From positions 1 through 24,064 of IMG/VR virus record IMGVR_UViG_3300020045_003120: 24,064 nucleotides of DNA, one strand, 5' to 3'. The notes under the pieces were generated by a model, which worked only from the letters and a program-made list of their open reading frames with translations, made no database searches and was not told where the DNA came from. This DNA comes from a virus (lineage: Duplodnaviria > Caudoviricetes). The translations under genes and the position numbers were made by a program. Below are positions 1,538-22,659 of this stretch, piece after piece; within the stretch, counting starts at the first letter, position 1; each line of letters starts with the position of its first letter.

Positions 1538-2437
1538 TTGAAAGCGGCGCGGCTCGCTCTTGAGCGGCTGCTGACCGAAGAGCCAGCCATAGCCGAAAGC
1601 GCGGCCGATTCCGTCAAGCGCTCCGATGCGTACCGGATTTTGGACTCTCGAAAAGCTACGCCGGTTGCCGCATCAAAACTGCGCGGGTTGCTCGCAAGTG
1701 CATGGGATCAGGCGCACGACGCTGGGTTGCTCGATCAGGATTCGCCCAACTGGTGGCGCGATGTGATGCGCGGCAAGCTCAAGAGCAAGGGCAAGATCAT
1801 CGGCGGCGAACATGCCGGACCAGCGCGGCGGACTCTGAGCATTGATGAGGTTCGCACGCTGCTGGAATGGTTGCCCAACATGCACCAGATCGCGCAGGAC
1901 GCGATCACGCTGTACCTGTGGACGTGCGCGCGAGGCTCCGAGATTCTTGCGATGAGGCCAGAACACTTGCGCGAGGAATCGGGCGTGCTGTGGTGGACTC
2001 TTCCTGTGATGATGACGAAAAACGCAGGAAAGCCGCACGCTGTTGATCTGCGCGTGCCACTGTTTGGTAGGGCGCTGGAAGTCGTCAGGCGCAGGCTTGA
2101 GGCTGTAGGGCCGCAGGGGTGGCTATTCGATGTTGAGGATGGCGGTCAGTACCGACAGCACTACCTAAGCACATACGTCTATGACCACCAACCCTACAGC
2201 GTGAAGTCAGTTGCTAGGCCGCACCGGCTGACATTACCTGTGACGCACTGGACGTTGCATGATCTGCGCAGGACAGGGCGCACGCTACTCGCTGGGCTGG
2301 GGTGCCCGCAGGATGTGGCCGAAGCGATATTGGGTCACATGCCTGCGGGGATTGTTAGCGTCTACAACCGGCACTCGTTCGATTCGGAGCGGGTTGTTTG
2401 GCTGGCTAGGTTGTCGGAGCTTCTTTGTCGTGCGTAA
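1538..2437 (+). CDS. int: Phage tyrosine integrase (P4-like family), N-terminal arm-binding domain missing
   Basis: Catalytic set TCARGSE (R), TKN (K), HDLRRT (HxxR), LGH and VY (Y). In-frame TGA at 1529-1531 lies in the junction. Confidence 0.9.
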   Translation: MKAARLALERLLTEEPAIAESAADSVKRSDAYRILDSRKATPVAASKLRGLLASAWDQAHDAGLLDQDSPNWWRDVMRGKLKSKGKIIGGEHAGPARRTLSIDEVRTLLEWLPNMHQIAQDAITLYLWTCARGSEILAMRPEHLREESGVLWWTLPVMMTKNAGKPHAVDLRVPLFGRALEVVRRRLEAVGPQGWLFDVEDGGQYRQHYLSTYVYDHQPYSVKSVARPHRLTLPVTHWTLHDLRRTGRTLLAGLGCPQDVAEAILGHMPAGIVSVYNRHSFDSERVVWLARLSELLCRA

Positions 2438-2652
2438 CTAGGCGATCTGGTGTTCGGCAACGTGAGCGCAGCCTTTGCCTCCGCTGCGACAGCACGCCAC
2501 GCATCCCGGTACTCATCGGTCATTTCGTGCCAACACAAAGTGTGCTCGCCGTCCAGTTCCGCTCGGTCGGTCTTCTGCCATACCTCGAAAAGCACTTGGC
2601 CGAACTCTGTGCTCGAAACGACGCCAGCCGGCGCGGGGGTGTTCGTGTTCAT
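2362..2652 (-). CDS. Cassette A hypothetical protein
   Basis: 96 aa. ATG lies inside attC-A. The C-terminus runs antisense into the 3' end of int. Confidence 0.7.
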   Translation of the reverse strand: MNTNTPAPAGVVSSTEFGQVLFEVWQKTDRAELDGEHTLCWHEMTDEYRDAWRAVAAEAKAALTLPNTRSPSYARQRSSDNLASQTTRSESNECRL

Positions 2653-2700
2653 GGTGTGTCTTTCTGCGCCGTCAGGCGCGTCTCAGCGAGGGTGTTGGGA
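2599..2700 (+). repeat. attC site A (102 bp)
   Basis: GCCGAAC-TCTGT-GCTCGAAA-CGACGCC...GGCGCG-TCTCAGC-GAGGGT-GTTGGGA. 5- and 6-nt spacers. The extra C in L'' and extra A in CGACGCC give extrahelical G and T on the bottom strand. Confidence 0.85.
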
Positions 2701-3194
2701 TGCACGTCGCGCCATTCCCAGCGCTCGACCGTCTCAGTCCAGCGGGCCATAACCTGTTGCGCTTTACCGCACCAAAGACAAGCCCGCGTGTCGCCATCCT
2801 GCGTCCAGCGCGTGTCGTCGCCAATGAAGTGCATCTTGTGGTCCGCGTCAATAGCGCACCGGCCGTCAGCAACGTATCGCGGCCAGAAGTCGGCCACTTC
2901 CACCAGGTCGCGCATGTTCACCCAGCAGCCGCTTTCGGCTTTGGCTCCGTTGCACAGCACGTTCACCAGTCTCGCGCCGATCAAGTCGCCCAGGTCCAGC
3001 ATGCCAATCCACAACACGCCGTCAGCATCGCGGTAGACGCGGCTTGTCCAGGCGTGGTGCTTCTTGCTGCGCATGGTCAGCCACTTGTAAAGGTTCGGGC
3101 TGTACTTCGCGCCGTTGCGCGGGCTCACTGCGGCCACGTCCAGGCCGTTCGGTGCAATCCCAACTCTGCAATCCATCGAATTCGCTTCGCTCAT
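2649..3194 (-). CDS. Cassette B hypothetical protein (Cys/His motifs CAIDADH, CLWC)
   Basis: 181 aa. Start inside attC-B with GGAG 7 nt upstream; stop inside attC-A. Confidence 0.8.
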   Translation of the reverse strand: MSEANSMDCRVGIAPNGLDVAAVSPRNGAKYSPNLYKWLTMRSKKHHAWTSRVYRDADGVLWIGMLDLGDLIGARLVNVLCNGAKAESGCWVNMRDLVEVADFWPRYVADGRCAIDADHKMHFIGDDTRWTQDGDTRACLWCGKAQQVMARWTETVERWEWRDVHPNTLAETRLTAQKDTP

Positions 3195-3215
3195 CGCTGA
3201 TCTCCGGTGTTGGGC
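3158..3215 (+). repeat. attC site B (58 bp, 59-be-like)
   Basis: TCCCAAC-TCTGC-AATCCATC-GAATTCGCTTCGCTCATC-GCTGATC-TCCGGT-GTTGGGC. Central CGCTTCGC as in aadA-type attC. Confidence 0.85.
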
Positions 3216-3457
3216 GACTCGCGCAGCCTGTCCATCCCCCTGGCCACCAGCTCGATGTCATCCTGGCATTCGACGGCGGCGCATGGGCCTTCGTGCCCCT
3301 TGGCCCTGGTACAGCGCCAGCCAAACGGCGGCAAGTCGCACCGACTATCGGCTTCGTCATAGTCGGTGCAGTCATCGCACCCGTTGCAGCCCTGCTCGCA
3401 GGTTCGCTCCGGCACAGGCCGCCCAACTCTGCAATCCATCGAATTCGCTTCGCTCAT
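3191..3457 (-). CDS. Cassette C Cys-rich hypothetical protein
   Basis: 88 aa with CEQGCNGCDDC and CDLPPFGWRCTRAKGHEGPCAA. Same N-terminus (MSEANSMDCRVG) as cassette B because both are attC-encoded. Confidence 0.75.
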   Translation of the reverse strand: MSEANSMDCRVGRPVPERTCEQGCNGCDDCTDYDEADSRCDLPPFGWRCTRAKGHEGPCAAVECQDDIELVARGMDRLRESPNTGDQR

Positions 3458-3478
3458 CGCTGGCCTTCGGTGTTACCA
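3421..3478 (+). repeat. attC site C (58 bp)
   Basis: GCCCAAC-TCTGC-AATCCATC-GAATTCGCTTCGCTCATC-GCTGGCC-TTCGGT-GTTACCA. 41 bp identical to attC-B (3422-3462 = 3159-3199). Confidence 0.85.
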
Positions 3479-3702
3479 GCTCTCCCATCCCCCGACCCAC
3501 TAGGCGGCAGCTTTGCGCTAACCGGCCTTGTCCTGACCCACTCGCGCAAGTTCTCCACCGGATAGCCCACAAGCCCAGCCGATATTTCTCGCGGCATCAG
3601 AAGCGGCTCAGTGCGGCTCAGTCGCTCGAAAGTGCTGACGGACATTCCGCGAATCATTGCGGCTGCTGTGGGCTTGTCTACTGCTAGAGGCTCGATGTTC
3701 AT
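3454..3702 (-). CDS. AlpA/Xis-like excisionase (winged HTH)
   Basis: 82 aa, AAAMIRGMSVSTFERL...PREISAGLVGY...LREW. Distal end of the early-left operon, near int. Confidence 0.75.
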   Translation of the reverse strand: MNIEPLAVDKPTAAAMIRGMSVSTFERLSRTEPLLMPREISAGLVGYPVENLREWVRTRPVSAKLPPSGSGDGRAGNTEGQR

Positions 3703-4337
3703 TGCGCACCGCCGATCTTTTTCGTGCGCTCAATGGCGCGGACCAGTCTCATAAGCTCATGCATTGGCGATCCAATATGGGCGTTGCACTCCATGATTTC
3801 GTCTGAGGCAAACACCTGCTCTTCAGTCAGCGGCTGCTGTGGGTGGGTGTAGACGGCCCGAATGTCGAAGTTCGCCGGGTGCCGTTGTGCGTCATCAAGT
3901 GATTTTGAAAAACTGGTGTACGTCTCATCAGGCCTTCCAGTTGCACTGCTGTGAATCCATGAATAGACGTATCCAAACGGCTCACCTTGCTCTGGAGCTG
4001 GCTCTTGCTGCGCTGCCTGCTGGGCTGGCTGGGGTGCTTCTGAAAGCGCTGCATCCCAAAGACTCTCAAAGTCGGCGCCATGCATGGAGCCACCAGCAAA
4101 AGCGCTGTCGTCAACCTTATTCACAGCCGCCCACATTTCGCGCGTCAGTTCATCCGGCACCAGTTGCCACCCTTCCGGCGCAGCAGGCACAGGCGCGAGA
4201 GCCTGGATAGCTGCCCGGGCTTTCCATGCTTCCCATGACGACTGCTCAACTCCGCCAATGTCAAGGCTTTCCGGGAAGTGCCGTGCAACTGGTCCCCACC
4301 ACTGCCGCCACGCTTCGCGCTCTATCTGCTCATTCAT
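3699..4337 (-). CDS. Hypothetical early protein (mosaic Ea-like)
   Basis: Likely start MNEQIER at 4337 (ATGA overlap). PEGWQLVP and PLTEEQ modules typical of phage early genes. Confidence 0.7.
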   Translation of the reverse strand: MNEQIEREAWRQWWGPVARHFPESLDIGGVEQSSWEAWKARAAIQALAPVPAAPEGWQLVPDELTREMWAAVNKVDDSAFAGGSMHGADFESLWDAALSEAPQPAQQAAQQEPAPEQGEPFGYVYSWIHSSATGRPDETYTSFSKSLDDAQRHPANFDIRAVYTHPQQPLTEEQVFASDEIMECNAHIGSPMHELMRLVRAIERTKKIGGAQ

Positions 4338-5036: not shown

Positions 5037-5257
5037 GCTGAATCCTTAATGTTGCGAATTGCTCGCGTGATTTCTTCAATCTCTGCGCAAAGCTCAGGAA
5101 TACCCTGAGTCGTCATGTATTGCCCATCGTCCAAGTGATGAAGCAATACCGTTGCTTTGTCGCGCAGCAACTGAGCCGCTTGTTTCTGCGCTCTGTAGAG
5201 TGTTGATAGACGGCCCACGCGGGCCATCTTTGATTCATCGGACAGATCGGGTATCAC
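5033..5257 (-). CDS. Hypothetical protein
   Basis: 74 aa, ATGA-coupled on both sides. Confidence 0.7.
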   Translation of the reverse strand: MIPDLSDESKMARVGRLSTLYRAQKQAAQLLRDKATVLLHHLDDGQYMTTQGIPELCAEIEEITRAIRNIKDSA

Positions 5258-5925
5258 AGCGCAAGGTGAGCGCCGCGATAACTCAGCGCGTCACGGAATG
5301 GAATGTCGTCGTCCATGTCAGCGAAGCCAGAACCGCCACCGGAACTAGGTTGTGCAGCAGCACGGCCATCAGCGGGTTTTGCGGCTTTGATAGGACGGTG
5401 GTGCAGGCGCTCGACCATCTTCGGCAGCATCAGCGGAACGGTCTTTCGCTCCAGAATCTCGGTCGCTGTCAAATCGGTCTTGGCTTGGAAAATCCCAGCG
5501 ATCACCATGCGCGTTCCGGTGGTCTGGTCTTTTTTCAGGTAGTCCTCGGTTTCCATCAGCAGGCCGATGGGCTTGCCACACAGATCGGGAAACACCGTGG
5601 CCTGCTTTGTGACTTCGGCATTCGCGTCGTAGTCCCATGCCTTCACCGTGCCGGTCTTCGGCTCAATGTTGCGAAGCTGCATGCAAGTCATGATTGCCAT
5701 CAGCACGTCAAACCCCATGATGGTTTCGCCATTGGCCTTCTTCGTGTACAGAGACAGACTCGCCTGTTGCCCGTTGCATTCAAAGCGGAGTGCGATGCCC
5801 TTGGTCCCGGTGGTGGCGGTAATGTCTTCGGCCTGCGTGAAGACGCCGACATACTTGCCAATTTGGTTGATGCGGTTGCCGGTCTGGTCTGCTTTTTGAG
5901 CGGCTTTGGTGTCGAGTGCGTACAT
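5254..5925 (-). CDS. Phage ssDNA-binding protein (DUF669-like)
   Basis: Follows the Sak4-like ATPase. Gly-rich linker plus acidic FADMDDDIPF motif. Confidence 0.7.
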   Translation of the reverse strand: MYALDTKAAQKADQTGNRINQIGKYVGVFTQAEDITATTGTKGIALRFECNGQQASLSLYTKKANGETIMGFDVLMAIMTCMQLRNIEPKTGTVKAWDYDANAEVTKQATVFPDLCGKPIGLLMETEDYLKKDQTTGTRMVIAGIFQAKTDLTATEILERKTVPLMLPKMVERLHHRPIKAAKPADGRAAAQPSSGGGSGFADMDDDIPFRDALSYRGAHLAL

Positions 5926-5943
5926 GGTGAGGTTCCTTTGTGA

Positions 5944-6591
5944 TTAAGCGGGGGTGAGGTCGTAAAAGTCGCTGATTGCCTTGTCAACTTCGGCAAGGTC
6001 GTTCGGGATTGCGAGGTCTTGAAACATCCCAATCGGCGACTTGCAGCAGTCTTGTCCGTTGGTCTGCGTGCGAAAGGTGTATTGCCCGTTGATGACTTCA
6101 GTTCGCAGAACGATGGTGAAAAAGCCCTCCGGAACGATGTGTTGGTCAACTAGCTTTCCAACGGTCTTCATCCGAACGTTTCCGAATTCATCGGTATTCG
6201 TGTGTGCAAGGATGTAAACACGGCGGCGGTCATCAAGCGAACCGGCAGCATTGAAGATGTTCCAAGCGTTTTTTCCAATGTCGGTGAACTTGTCGTAACC
6301 CTTCTCGCTGGATCGGTTCATCAGTTCATTGACCATGACGGCCTGATAGTCGTCAATCACAACGATTTCTTGCGGAGAGCTGCGCATCAGTTTCTCAATC
6401 AGCACCGGGTCTGCGGTCTGAACCACATTGCCTTCTGACTTTGTGGAGAGCTTGACTTTCCACCCGGTTGACTTGAACGGAAGCGGCTTTCTGATGCACT
6501 GGATCAACAGTGTTTTGCTCGGATCAAAATTGCGAAGGCTGGTGGATTTCCCAGAACCGCTGCTACCTAGAATCAATGTTGCTGTGCTCAT
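5944..6591 (-). CDS. AAA_24/Sak4-like recombination ATPase
   Basis: Walker A GSSGSGKST, Walker B VVIDD, KGYDKF, ILAH, KTVGKL, CKSPIGMF. Confidence 0.85.
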   Translation of the reverse strand: MSTATLILGSSGSGKSTSLRNFDPSKTLLIQCIRKPLPFKSTGWKVKLSTKSEGNVVQTADPVLIEKLMRSSPQEIVVIDDYQAVMVNELMNRSSEKGYDKFTDIGKNAWNIFNAAGSLDDRRRVYILAHTNTDEFGNVRMKTVGKLVDQHIVPEGFFTIVLRTEVINGQYTFRTQTNGQDCCKSPIGMFQDLAIPNDLAEVDKAISDFYDLTPA

Positions 6592-8885: not shown

Positions 8886-8939
8886 ATTAAACACCACGTT
8901 TACACACCATGTCAACAGCAGGTGTAAACACTGTGTGTT
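8886..8939 (-). promoter_or_regulatory. pL promoter with operator sites OL
   Basis: Minus strand TTGACA (8915-8910), 18 bp, TTTAAT. Imperfect TAAACA-N3-TGTTTA sites at 8888-8902, 8901-8915 and 8925-8939. Confidence 0.7.
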
Positions 8940-10041: not shown

Positions 10042-10071
10042 GTTGACAAGTGTTTAAACGTGGTGTGTAAT
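10042..10071 (+). promoter_or_regulatory. pR promoter with operator sites OR
   Basis: TTGACA (10043-10048), 17 bp, TGTAAT (10066-10071). Shares TAAACGTGGTGT with pL. Confidence 0.75.
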
Positions 10072-11298: not shown

Positions 11299-12114
11299 AT
11301 GCGAATCAAGGATTGGAATAAGTTCCAGCACTTCAAAGACCGCAAGCCGCCTTGGATCAAGTTGTACCGAGACATTCTTGATGATGTTGAGTGGCACGAG
11401 CTTCCCGCAGATAGCGCAAAGACCTTGGTAATGCTTTGGTTGATTGCTAGTGAGGACGAAGGCAACTTGCCGGAAATGAAAAAGCTGGCCTTCAGGCTCC
11501 GTATCAACACGAAAACTATTAAGGATCACATTTCGCACCTGTCTCACTGGATTGATATGGATGGATATCAAGCTGATATCACGCCGTCTCAGAAAAATTC
11601 AGTACCTGATGTTAGTGACCACCAAGAGACAGAGACAGAGACAGAGACAGAGACAGAGACAGAGACAGAGACAGAGACAGAGACAGAGACAGAGACAGAG
11701 ACAGAGACAGAGACAGAGACAGAGACAGAGAAGCCGCCGCGCAAGCGCGTCAAGCCTGTTTTTTTTGAAACGCCGGATTGGATCAATCGTGAGCATTGGG
11801 ATGCATGGCATTCCTGCGCCAAACGTAAGAAGGCCACTGCGGAGCAGAAGGCGCTGGCTCTTGAGACTTTGAGCGAATGGCGTACCGCTGGCCAGGACTT
11901 CGCTGGAGCGCTGAAAAACGCAGCGGTAGGGGGTTGGTCGGGGTTATTCCTTCCTAGCGCTCAAAAGGCCGCAAATCAAAGCCTGAGCTTTGCCCAGGTT
12001 GACGAACAAACCCGCCGAAAGCGTTGGGAAGAAATGACGGGTCGCAGGTGGCCCGAATCGGATGCGATGCCGGAATTCATCGACGTTGAAACAACTGTGC
12101 AGAGGATCGCATGA
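11299..12114 (+). CDS. Phage replication initiator (replisome organiser-type)
   Basis: MRIKDWNKFQHFKDRKPPWIKLYRDILDD N-domain, ET-repeat linker, PDWI...W C-domain; lambda O position. Confidence 0.8.
   Translation: MRIKDWNKFQHFKDRKPPWIKLYRDILDDVEWHELPADSAKTLVMLWLIASEDEGNLPEMKKLAFRLRINTKTIKDHISHLSHWIDMDGYQADITPSQKNSVPDVSDHQETETETETETETETETETETETETETETETETETEKPPRKRVKPVFFETPDWINREHWDAWHSCAKRKKATAEQKALALETLSEWRTAGQDFAGALKNAAVGGWSGLFLPSAQKAANQSLSFAQVDEQTRRKRWEEMTGRRWPESDAMPEFIDVETTVQRIA
11626..11730 (+). repeat. Perfect in-frame hexamer repeat (GAGACA)17-GAG
   Basis: Seen directly; encodes (ET)17E. Confidence 0.95.
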
Positions 12115-21216: not shown

Positions 21217-22659
21217 ATGGCGAATATGTTTGGTAGTGGCGCATTCAGCTACAGCGACCAGTCTGCGAACAAGGTGAACTTGTACAAAGACCCTGTGACG
21301 GGGGTTTTGTTTGCTGGTGAGGATCAGAACGACCCTGCTGCTGAGGCGGTTGGTGGAAGGGAGTTCACATCGCCAAACTCTATTGTTTTGTTTGGAGACT
21401 CCATAACCAACAACAACAACGTCAACAACGGTCAGTCTGGGGCGTCCAACGTCACAACCCAATCAAAGACGCAGGACATTGGATGGTTCACATGGGCAAA
21501 TATCATGCTCAATGGAGCCTTCAAGGTGGTGCGAAACAGCGCTGTTGCGGGCGACAAAACCGGCGACATGCTGGCGCGAATGGAGTCTGATGTTTTGGCC
21601 TATGCACCTTCGTGGGTATTGGTTGCAGGCGGCATCAATGACCGCGACCTAGGCGGTGGTGCTGACCGTGGTTTTGACTACACAGTTGGAAATCTCAAGG
21701 CCATCTGCTCTCGATTGAACGCATCCGGCTCCATGGTCCTGTTGGCAACCTTGATCCCAAACAACGCGATCAACACTCTTGGTGCCGGAAATATCAAGGT
21801 TGAGAACCTGATGCGCGTCAATGACTGGATTAGACGCTATGCCGAGGCGACGCCCGGAGTGGTGTGCGTCGATGTGTTTTCCTCAATCTACGATCAAACG
21901 ACAGTGTGCGGCGCAATTTCTGGTTCTTTGGCAGACCAGTCGCACCCAAGCACGAGCGGCGCATGGCGAATTGGCGCTGCCGCTGCCCGTATCTTGACCG
22001 GCATCATCAAACCGAGGCCAGTGGTTTCCTCCCTTGGAAGCGTTGCATCTGCAACCAACCCGCATGGGAACCTGATCAGGTTTTCGACTATGAGCGGCAC
22101 CACGGGCACGCTACCAGTTACCTACGTTACGACCGGCACCGTTCCAGAAGGTTGGTGGCTGCAAGAGTCTGGAGCCACTGCAAACGCTGGGCACACCATC
22201 ACCATGACGCGCCCAGCACGTACCGACTTCCCGGTGCAATCGTGGTGGCAAACAGTCATTGCATGGACTGCTGCGCAAAGCGCGGTTTGTACGTTCACGC
22301 ACCGTCTGCTGACTGGTTCGACCTTGACGATTCCTGCGGGTGTTGTGGCTGGCGATCCGCTTGATTGCTCGATAGAGTTGGAATATTCCGGGGTTACGAA
22401 CGCTGGGCCTCTGACAGTCGAATTCATCGCAAGGCAAGGCACGACCGAACTTGCAATCGCCAACTTCCTTTATGGAGAGACTCTGACTACGCCGACGCCG
22501 GCCTTTGCTGGTGTCGTAACGATCAACAATTTTCCGCTGCCTGCTGGCGCTGACAATATTTTTGTTCGTGTTCAGACGCGCAACCTCGCTGGCACTGCTG
22601 GCGGCTACACACTGCGCATCGGGCGCTTGTTCTGCGGGAAGCAGTTAACGTCTTTTTGA
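21217..22659 (+). CDS. SGNH/GDSL esterase with C-terminal beta-rich domain
   Basis: FGDSIT, AVAG, GGIND and DQSHP: complete S-G-N-H set. Confidence 0.85.
   Translation: MANMFGSGAFSYSDQSANKVNLYKDPVTGVLFAGEDQNDPAAEAVGGREFTSPNSIVLFGDSITNNNNVNNGQSGASNVTTQSKTQDIGWFTWANIMLNGAFKVVRNSAVAGDKTGDMLARMESDVLAYAPSWVLVAGGINDRDLGGGADRGFDYTVGNLKAICSRLNASGSMVLLATLIPNNAINTLGAGNIKVENLMRVNDWIRRYAEATPGVVCVDVFSSIYDQTTVCGAISGSLADQSHPSTSGAWRIGAAAARILTGIIKPRPVVSSLGSVASATNPHGNLIRFSTMSGTTGTLPVTYVTTGTVPEGWWLQESGATANAGHTITMTRPARTDFPVQSWWQTVIAWTAAQSAVCTFTHRLLTGSTLTIPAGVVAGDPLDCSIELEYSGVTNAGPLTVEFIARQGTTELAIANFLYGETLTTPTPAFAGVVTINNFPLPAGADNIFVRVQTRNLAGTAGGYTLRIGRLFCGKQLTSF

Follow-up and report, generated by a model that had tools for sequence, protein, structure and literature searches.

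Introduction

Clusters of attC sites have already been reported from bacteriophages: among 10,705 phage genomes, 17 CALINs were identified along with phage integrons, and IntI1 recombined five of the six phage attC sites tested (Qi 2023, PMC9892861). The phage CALINs of that survey resemble the array described here, each being a cluster of attC sites with one ORF per site and no intI in a phage genome; its main text says nothing of bottom-strand genes, of starts within attC or of coupling by way of attC, and its figures may show orientation. Cassettes are also known away from integrons, as IntI places them at GWT sites (Loot et al., bioRxiv 10.1101/2022.09.11.507474), and both outer junctions of our array fit insertion at a site of this kind, like the attG sites and SALINs of that preprint. 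These off-platform elements belong to bacterial genomes, and the preprint, in the portion available, presents no adapted in-frame type of reversed cassette. A further parallel is found in synthetic attC sites placed within coding sequence, which both encode a peptide and recombine (Nivina et al. 2020, PMC7439510), as is predicted for the sites described below; those sites were engineered, whereas ours are natural and carry start and stop codons as well.

Canonical integron cassettes, such as those of class 1 integrons and of chromosomal integrons in Betaproteobacteria, share with our locus the anatomy of attC, the polarity towards the bottom strand, the G|TT ends and the pairing of core sites within each unit. 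They differ in the placement of their genes, which occupy the top strand, run up to R'' (40/47 units in our control set) and are read from Pc, whereas the genes of our locus lie on the bottom strand and begin within attC. Occasional reversed ORFs with promoters of their own occur in bacterial arrays as exceptions.

In this study we analyzed a stretch of 24,064 nucleotides from a virus of the Caudoviricetes (IMG/VR record IMGVR_UViG_3300020045_003120), hereafter the window. Judging from its sequence and from the comparisons given below, we consider it probable that the window holds a three-cassette array of integron type, with bottom-strand genes that start in their own attC sites, likely inserted and likely exchanged at G|TT by an IntI acting in trans and likely transcribed from pL rather than from an integron promoter. 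Phage-borne attC arrays have already been published; the distinctive part is the reversed layout with starts in attC. A literature search, in which subscription journals were thinly covered, yielded no account of reversed cassettes or of an IntI group in phage early operons.

Genomic setting of the array

The whole virus record is a linear 24-kb contig, about 54% complete, which from about position 1530 onwards corresponds to a lambdoid temperate phage, with an integrase, a leftward early operon, a repressor, replication and nin-type genes, a terminase and a portal. The array is located at the far end of the leftward early operon, between the excisionase-like gene and the 3' end of the integrase gene (Table 1). 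The latter is convergent with the early operon, its stop codon lies 14 nt before the first G|TT point, and it is truncated at its 5' end, with an open frame of 301 aa vs 452–478 aa in its relatives and about 150 N-terminal residues missing. The excisionase-like gene receives its last six codons and its stop codon from attC C, and a pattern scan of the viral contigs gave no match to it. The pL-like promoter points into the leftward operon and overlaps an operator-like repeat that is common to a pR-like site near position 10045; judged from its sequence, it is the likely promoter of the leftward operon, at whose end the cassettes lie. Relatives of gene B named Hydrogenophaga, Burkholderiaceae and Methylibium suggest a host from the Burkholderiales.

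Several further features of the window were recorded. A 22-nt inverted pair (8886–8907 and 10050–10071), likely representing operators, overlaps the pL- and pR-like promoters that flank the repressor gene. Positions 1–1530 form an AT-rich block (28–38% GC) with GroES-like and glycosyltransferase-like genes, which is abruptly joined to DNA of 56–64% GC; this join near 1530, with its truncated integrase, could have arisen through chimeric assembly or could mark a true junction between the phage and another element. About 18 tandem AGAGAC hexamers (11625–11731) lie within the O-like replication gene, and a lipase/esterase-like gene (21217–22659) directly follows the portal gene.

Table 1. Positions of the array, its genes and its neighbours in the window.
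Feature	Position	Strand	Remarks
Tyrosine integrase	1538..2437	+	phage type, not IntI; PF00589, phrog_1; no TIGR02249 match
Left junction	2426..2454	+	ends in G|TT (2452|2453), not an attC; 12-nt motif, stop codon and GGTGTT spacing as in L001
ORF A	2362..2652	-	96 aa; starts within attC A
Unit A	2453..2694	+	242 bp between G|TT points; left R' complementary to R'' of the unit; circle length and fold
attC A	2599..2700	top +, bottom -	R'' 2599, L'' 2611, L' 2681, R' 2694; 23.7 bits
ORF B	2649..3194	-	181 aa; conserved core, attC-encoded leader and tail
Unit B	2695..3209	+	515 bp; own R'/R'' pairing; gene-B DNA identity from R'' to R' in aligned loci
attC B	3158..3215	+	58 nt; R'' 3158, L'' 3170, L' 3196, R' 3209; 33.1 bits
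ORF C	3191..3457	-	88 aa, cysteine-rich; two halves match different viral loci
Unit C	3210..3472	+	263 bp; own R'/R'' pairing; circle
attC C	3421..3478	+	decayed copy of attC B; R'' 3421, L'' 3433, L' 3459, R' 3472; 8.8 bits
Excisionase/AlpA-like gene	3454..3702	-	putative, by position and a single source name; lies beyond the array
SSB and Sak4-like annealing protein genes	5254..6591	-	PHROGs 743 and 2872
pL-like promoter	8886..8915	-	TTGACA, 18 nt, TTTAAT; read by eye, absent from consensus-scan output

Anatomy and scoring of the attC sites

The preliminary description of this DNA had placed three elements of attC architecture in the window, and their coordinates, their R''/L''/L'/R' anatomy and their G|TT points were all confirmed. 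The three sites have invariant AAC and GTT boxes, spacers of 5 and 6 nt, and a C at position 4 of L''. Of the seven positions in the L arm, six form Watson-Crick pairs in attC A, five in attC B and three in attC C. The last of these is 94% identical to attC B over 53 nt (50/53 nt), with a changed L' arm and GTTACCA as its R' box.

To score these sites we relied on our own covariance model, R1, composed of 47 attC bottom strands located beside bacterial intI genes. A scan of bacterial genomes with IntI1 led to 80 loci, and our own attC scorer was run on the 65 that had sequence upstream of intI, where it gave 101 matches on the expected strand vs 9 on the other. The 47 sequences were drawn from 66 distinct scorer matches, and matches on the wrong strand, three doubtful ones and near-copies were left out of the alignment. 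Applied to the window, R1 placed both attC B (33.1 bits, E 1e-6) and attC A (23.7 bits, E 3e-4) on the minus strand, the E-values being rough; the best other match in the 24 kb reached 9.3 bits, and attC C, with 8.8 bits, is at chance level. The check by covariance model proposed earlier is consequently positive for attC A and B and negative for attC C. Because A and B score on the minus strand and C is about 94% identical to B, A and B qualify as attC sites, with the plus strand as their top strand, and C represents a decayed copy of B. A scan of the window against Rfam gave no match.

The folding of the bottom strands gave a divided answer. The attC bottom strand folds better than the top strand, in linear as well as circular form, yet the three hairpins in linear form are no more stable than shuffled sequences, with bottom-strand z values of only -1.2 to -1.6. 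This weak folding energy, together with the 0.5 matches per shuffled window that a simple scorer gives at the level of A and B, would agree with chance palindromes or terminators accompanied by one short duplication. We regard such a chance origin as extremely improbable, as it is contradicted by the model scores and, as described below, by the core pairing, the recurrence with exact ends and the IntI-linked relatives. B and A can presumably still recombine, and C would do so poorly.

Cassette units and pairing of their core sites

The G|TT points lie at 2452, 2694, 3209 and 3472, and the unit lengths given in the preliminary description follow from them exactly. Its claim that core sites co-vary by unit also held: beyond the triplet, the left R' of units A, B and C pairs with the R'' of the same unit over 4, 5 and 5 bases, vs 0, 3 and 0 bases in the linear sites, and 0.57% of random GTT/AAC pairs in the window (n=9152) reach 4 bases. 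With two supported attC sites 458 bp apart, one decayed site and no intI nearby, the array corresponds to the definition of a CALIN.

At its left end the array borders on a junction for which two origins are conceivable: a secondary insertion site, or an attI of which the upstream portion was kept and the core lost. The 12-nt motif, the stop codon and GGTGTT occur at the same spacing in the viral contig L001, and an attI-like stretch follows them in L001 only; from this one locus, the window may have lost the core of attI. The left-end motif was found in 3 of 401 bacterial genomes (control 1), in none of them near intI, and this search was uninformative. Were the three units removed, the flanks (2445–2452 and 3473–3482) would come together as an almost perfect inverted repeat of 8 bp around GTT, which may be due to chance.

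Reversed genes with starts and stops inside attC

ORFs A, B and C are all encoded on the bottom (minus) strand of attC, reversed with respect to bacterial cassettes, and each starts within its own attC, whereas a canonical cassette has a top-strand ORF upstream of its attC. The preliminary description had the count right, with one gene per unit, and left unstated both the location on the minus strand and the overlap with the sites. Each site contains an ATGA that joins two genes: at 2649–2652 in attC A it is the stop of ORF B and the start of ORF A, and at 3191–3194 within attC B and 3454–3457 within attC C it is the stop of the upstream gene and the start of the next. Because there is no clear Shine-Dalgarno motif at sites B and C, the starts at these sites would depend on coupling. 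ORF A crosses the left G|TT as Asn and continues for 30 codons into the integrase end, and all four ORFs of the window that cross a G|TT point read it as Asn. When the units were closed into circles in silico, the ORF of each was exactly 4 nt longer than the unit and closed on its own ATGA. In such a design, each attC would provide its gene with a start and the neighbouring gene with an end, and any unit could enter or leave at G|TT without breaking the translation of adjacent genes.

Recurrence of the sites in other DNA

The 53-nt core of the B type was found in six contexts with different flanks, namely twice in the window and in the viral contigs L001, L002, L003 and L119, where it is identical or one base off and accompanies different cargo. 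Identity ends at GTT in three viral contigs and in independent metagenome contigs, so that the earlier expectation of finding cassettes in other contexts with G|TT boundaries was borne out by a B-type site with other cargo. A freshwater metagenome, of which contigs were searched and which covers a small share of the stretch, contains a contig identical over 3159–3215, contigs with a match ending at 3474 or 3475 (site C) or beginning at the AAC of site A, and sites related to attC A, one of them with unrelated sequence before 2603. A collection of annotated phages gave no match to positions 2400–3720. A scan with a degenerate attC pattern gave 29 loci, two of them with model hits, one of which was the L003 contig again. 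An empty site is represented by L169, in which an excisionase-like gene overlaps the end of a 53% identical integrase and nothing lies between; excisionase homologs vary in their tails, one of which corresponds to what attC B would encode. In L002, repeated TGTCGTG motifs occur near the first G|TT, no integrase lies to the left of the array, and the array follows a lysis-type gene in the end region of the contig.

These recurrences bear on whether the array is still exchanged. Its sites could be derived from attC and now fixed: a phage integron, deprived of intI, would be decaying in place, with the sites retained for the gene ends and translational coupling they encode. The decay of site C, the weak hairpins and the lack of IntI in the contig agree with this, as do the left end, which resembles only the upstream part of the attI-like stretch of L001, and the truncated integrase, on account of which the element may be defective. 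We nevertheless consider a fixed remnant unlikely, given that the B-type core is near-identical in four contigs with other cargo and in an independent sample, pointing to recent spread, and that the core pairing is intact in all three units. Returning to exchange by IntI, the preliminary description had proposed that the phage acquires or shuffles early genes as cassettes; the model support for A and B and the recurrence with G|TT ends favour this, the decay of site C and the lack of IntI weigh against it, and on the latter two grounds mobility in the present day is something we infer.

The proposed recombinase and its phage-borne relatives

A search with TIGR02249 found no IntI in the 24-kb contig, which is about 54% complete, and the accessory early genes are therefore likely swapped by an integron enzyme from elsewhere. 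The adjacent integrase, considered as the cassette recombinase in a reverse-integron geometry, was rejected: it is not an IntI, and arrays with the same sites lie beside an unrelated integrase (L001) or beside none (L002). By analogy with established integron biology, on which these steps are modelled, IntI would fold and cut the bottom strand of attC, excise circles and insert them at attI, attC or secondary sites of the GWT type. The enzyme could be provided by the host or by a co-resident phage with intI and attI beside the same integrase family, and the lineage of the window may have lost IntI or never had it.

Phages of this kind are present among the viral contigs. In L164/L176, the gene for an integrase 50% identical to that of the window precedes a complete intI, which lies on the early-operon strand, and then come an attI and reversed cassettes; in L160/L175 the same intI and attI are followed by one cassette and then an excisionase-like gene. 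Exactly at attI, a single unit of 523 bp distinguishes L175 from L176. The start of this unit, the first cassette of L176 (attI, offset 0), recurs at 1099 bp, after the third site; as this repeat is at the contig end it may be an assembly effect, the alternative being duplication by reinsertion. A scan with IntI of the L164 type retrieved 24 viral loci, 18 of them at 43–100% identity and some of them duplicates, and the three phage IntIs tested all pass the TIGR02249 cut-off. attC matches were obtained at 13 of the 18 loci with close IntIs, and all 41 have the canonical polarity to intI; among the units beside phage intI (n=37), 29 are reversed, 3 canonical and 5 uncalled. From L175 to L191, a conserved attI-like sequence of about 33 nt with an upstream GTT repeat is located 5' of intI, and several of these loci have a short excisionase-like ORF directly after intI.

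The gene-B family and exchange of attC leaders

A total of 299 homologs of gene B were found. By our own residue rules, among the best 120 of these, 45 have an R''-type leader, 52 an Asn at the R' position and 36 both; for the closest 50 the corresponding counts are 41, 35 and 34. The ends of the homologs are variable, and many distant ones have neither attC-type end. In four aligned viral loci, gene-B DNA identity extends from R'' to R' and is lost beyond, each locus having another attC, and for homologs in other arrays identity ends at the same AAC/GTT. With R1, no attC was detected in 12 loci, which include five bacterial and one plasmid gene-B loci and three loci of partial ORF C relatives; a plasmid search returned one gene-B homolog, from Methylibium, without attC. 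Given the distant homologs without attC ends and the loci without attC, gene B is present in some genomes as a plain gene and in others as a cassette. Homologs without the same boundaries, which the preliminary description had counted against a cassette origin, are thus found alongside homologs that have the same AAC/GTT ends. A quick tree of the gene-B core left 58 of 117 forks open.

The same gene body occurs with different attC leaders and the same leader on different bodies, including two homologs with an attC A-like leader on a gene-B body. Plain bottom-strand excision does not explain this exchange of leader and body. An attC core could be moved between bodies by recombination of the top strand, reported to be 1,000–10,000 times rarer (PMC5027507), by Sak4 through homologous recombination, or by repeated cassette birth. 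A broader role for homology would be that the units are shuffled mainly by Sak4 and SSB through near-identical attC cores, with IntI needed at first capture only. Genes for both proteins lie in the same operon, B and C share 50/53 nt, leaders move between bodies, ORF C is a mosaic, and with crossovers inside identical cores, too, identity would stop at GTT. Such shuffling cannot, however, explain the insertion at attI without attC homology (L175 vs L176), nor the fact that R' and R'' within a unit still pair, and neighbouring sites in most arrays differ widely in sequence; we regard it as very unlikely to be the main route. Insertion and exchange at G|TT by IntI remain our preferred account of the units.

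The cargo proteins gave few matches. No Pfam match above the cut-off, no PADLOC match and no PDB sequence match was obtained for the cargo, atlas matches stayed below 0.9, and the folds had no Foldseek match at E 0.001 in PDB or BFVD. ORF B has no NCBIfam match; its model has a pLDDT of 89.6, with a confident core and low-confidence ends where attC encodes them. ORF C matches PHROGs only weakly, in families of unknown function, and the searches found no relatives of protein A, nor of unit A.

Orientation of cassettes in phages and bacteria

The distribution of gene orientations was determined for 115 distinct viral units in 30 loci, taken from R1 matches and including units B and C, after duplicates and matches cut off were dropped and two sites of L003 added. 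Orientation was called by our own codon score, and part of this viral sample was found through the window's own genes. Reversed genes were called in 96 of the 115 units, with 6 canonical and 13 uncalled; in the loci found by attC pattern alone (n=84) the counts were 71, 4 and 9, respectively. The same script applied to units beside bacterial intI (n=47) gave 2 reversed, 40 canonical and 5 uncalled. Full pairing with the unit's own R'' was observed in 92/115 viral units vs 27 in the linear sites, and in 39/47 bacterial units vs 8. On these sequences, the reversed layout is the rule in these phages.

Translation signals in the sites follow the same division. A Shine-Dalgarno-like motif with ATG occurs on the bottom strand of 50 of 185 viral attC sites and on the top strand of 1, and in bacterial sites on 2 of 68 bottom strands and 0 top strands; ATGA is counted 63 times on the bottom and 2 times on the top strand of viral sites (n=185) vs 5 and 1 in bacterial ones (n=68). 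In the reversed viral ORFs (n=96), a possible start lies within the ORF's own attC in 43 cases, and 52 ORFs begin in the unit body; 61 stop before G|TT, and 33 of the 35 that cross it read Asn. A unit length of 2 modulo 3, true in the window, was rejected as a general rule, the reversed viral units being spread 26/32/38. Given the 52/96 starts in the body, the 61 early stops and this spread of lengths, the tidy coupling seen in the window represents one design among several.

Two arrays of the published survey were also scanned with R1. TJE1 is canonical (3 sites), and MW202573 is reversed, with 5 sites on the strand of the annotated genes in the first 30 of its 34.6 kb. In MW202573 (L208, 2069–3738), a published CALIN with reversed genes, an annotated gene has its start within attC; the main text of PMC9892861 does not remark on the reversed layout.

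Biological implications

Taken further, these observations would fit a wider model, in which temperate phages of Burkholderiales-type hosts run a back-to-front integron of their own, with a phage IntI group, their own attI at the end of the early operon, attC sites as portable start and stop modules, and circles that close on themselves as genes ready for translation; attC cores would move between bodies at the R'' end and so turn ordinary phage genes into cassettes. We put this model forward tentatively, as a possibility that falls somewhat short of even chances. If transcription proceeds from pL, as is likely, the newest cassette at attI would occupy the final position of the operon. In a bacterial integron, genes in the reversed orientation would be turned towards Pc and would likely be silent, so phage and host could share a recombinase and keep separate gene pools.

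Such an array would be one concrete, site-specific way in which phage early regions become mosaic gene by gene, and its natural attC sites double as coding and translation signals, a role that had previously been engineered. Recurring N- and C-terminal motifs in unrelated hypothetical proteins of phages may thereby be explained as attC read backwards. For the question of how cassettes originate, the gene-B family, with its plain genes, cassette forms and many attC leaders, provides a test set for models of cassette birth. If the back-to-front phage integron is true, phages would be a place where new cassettes are born.
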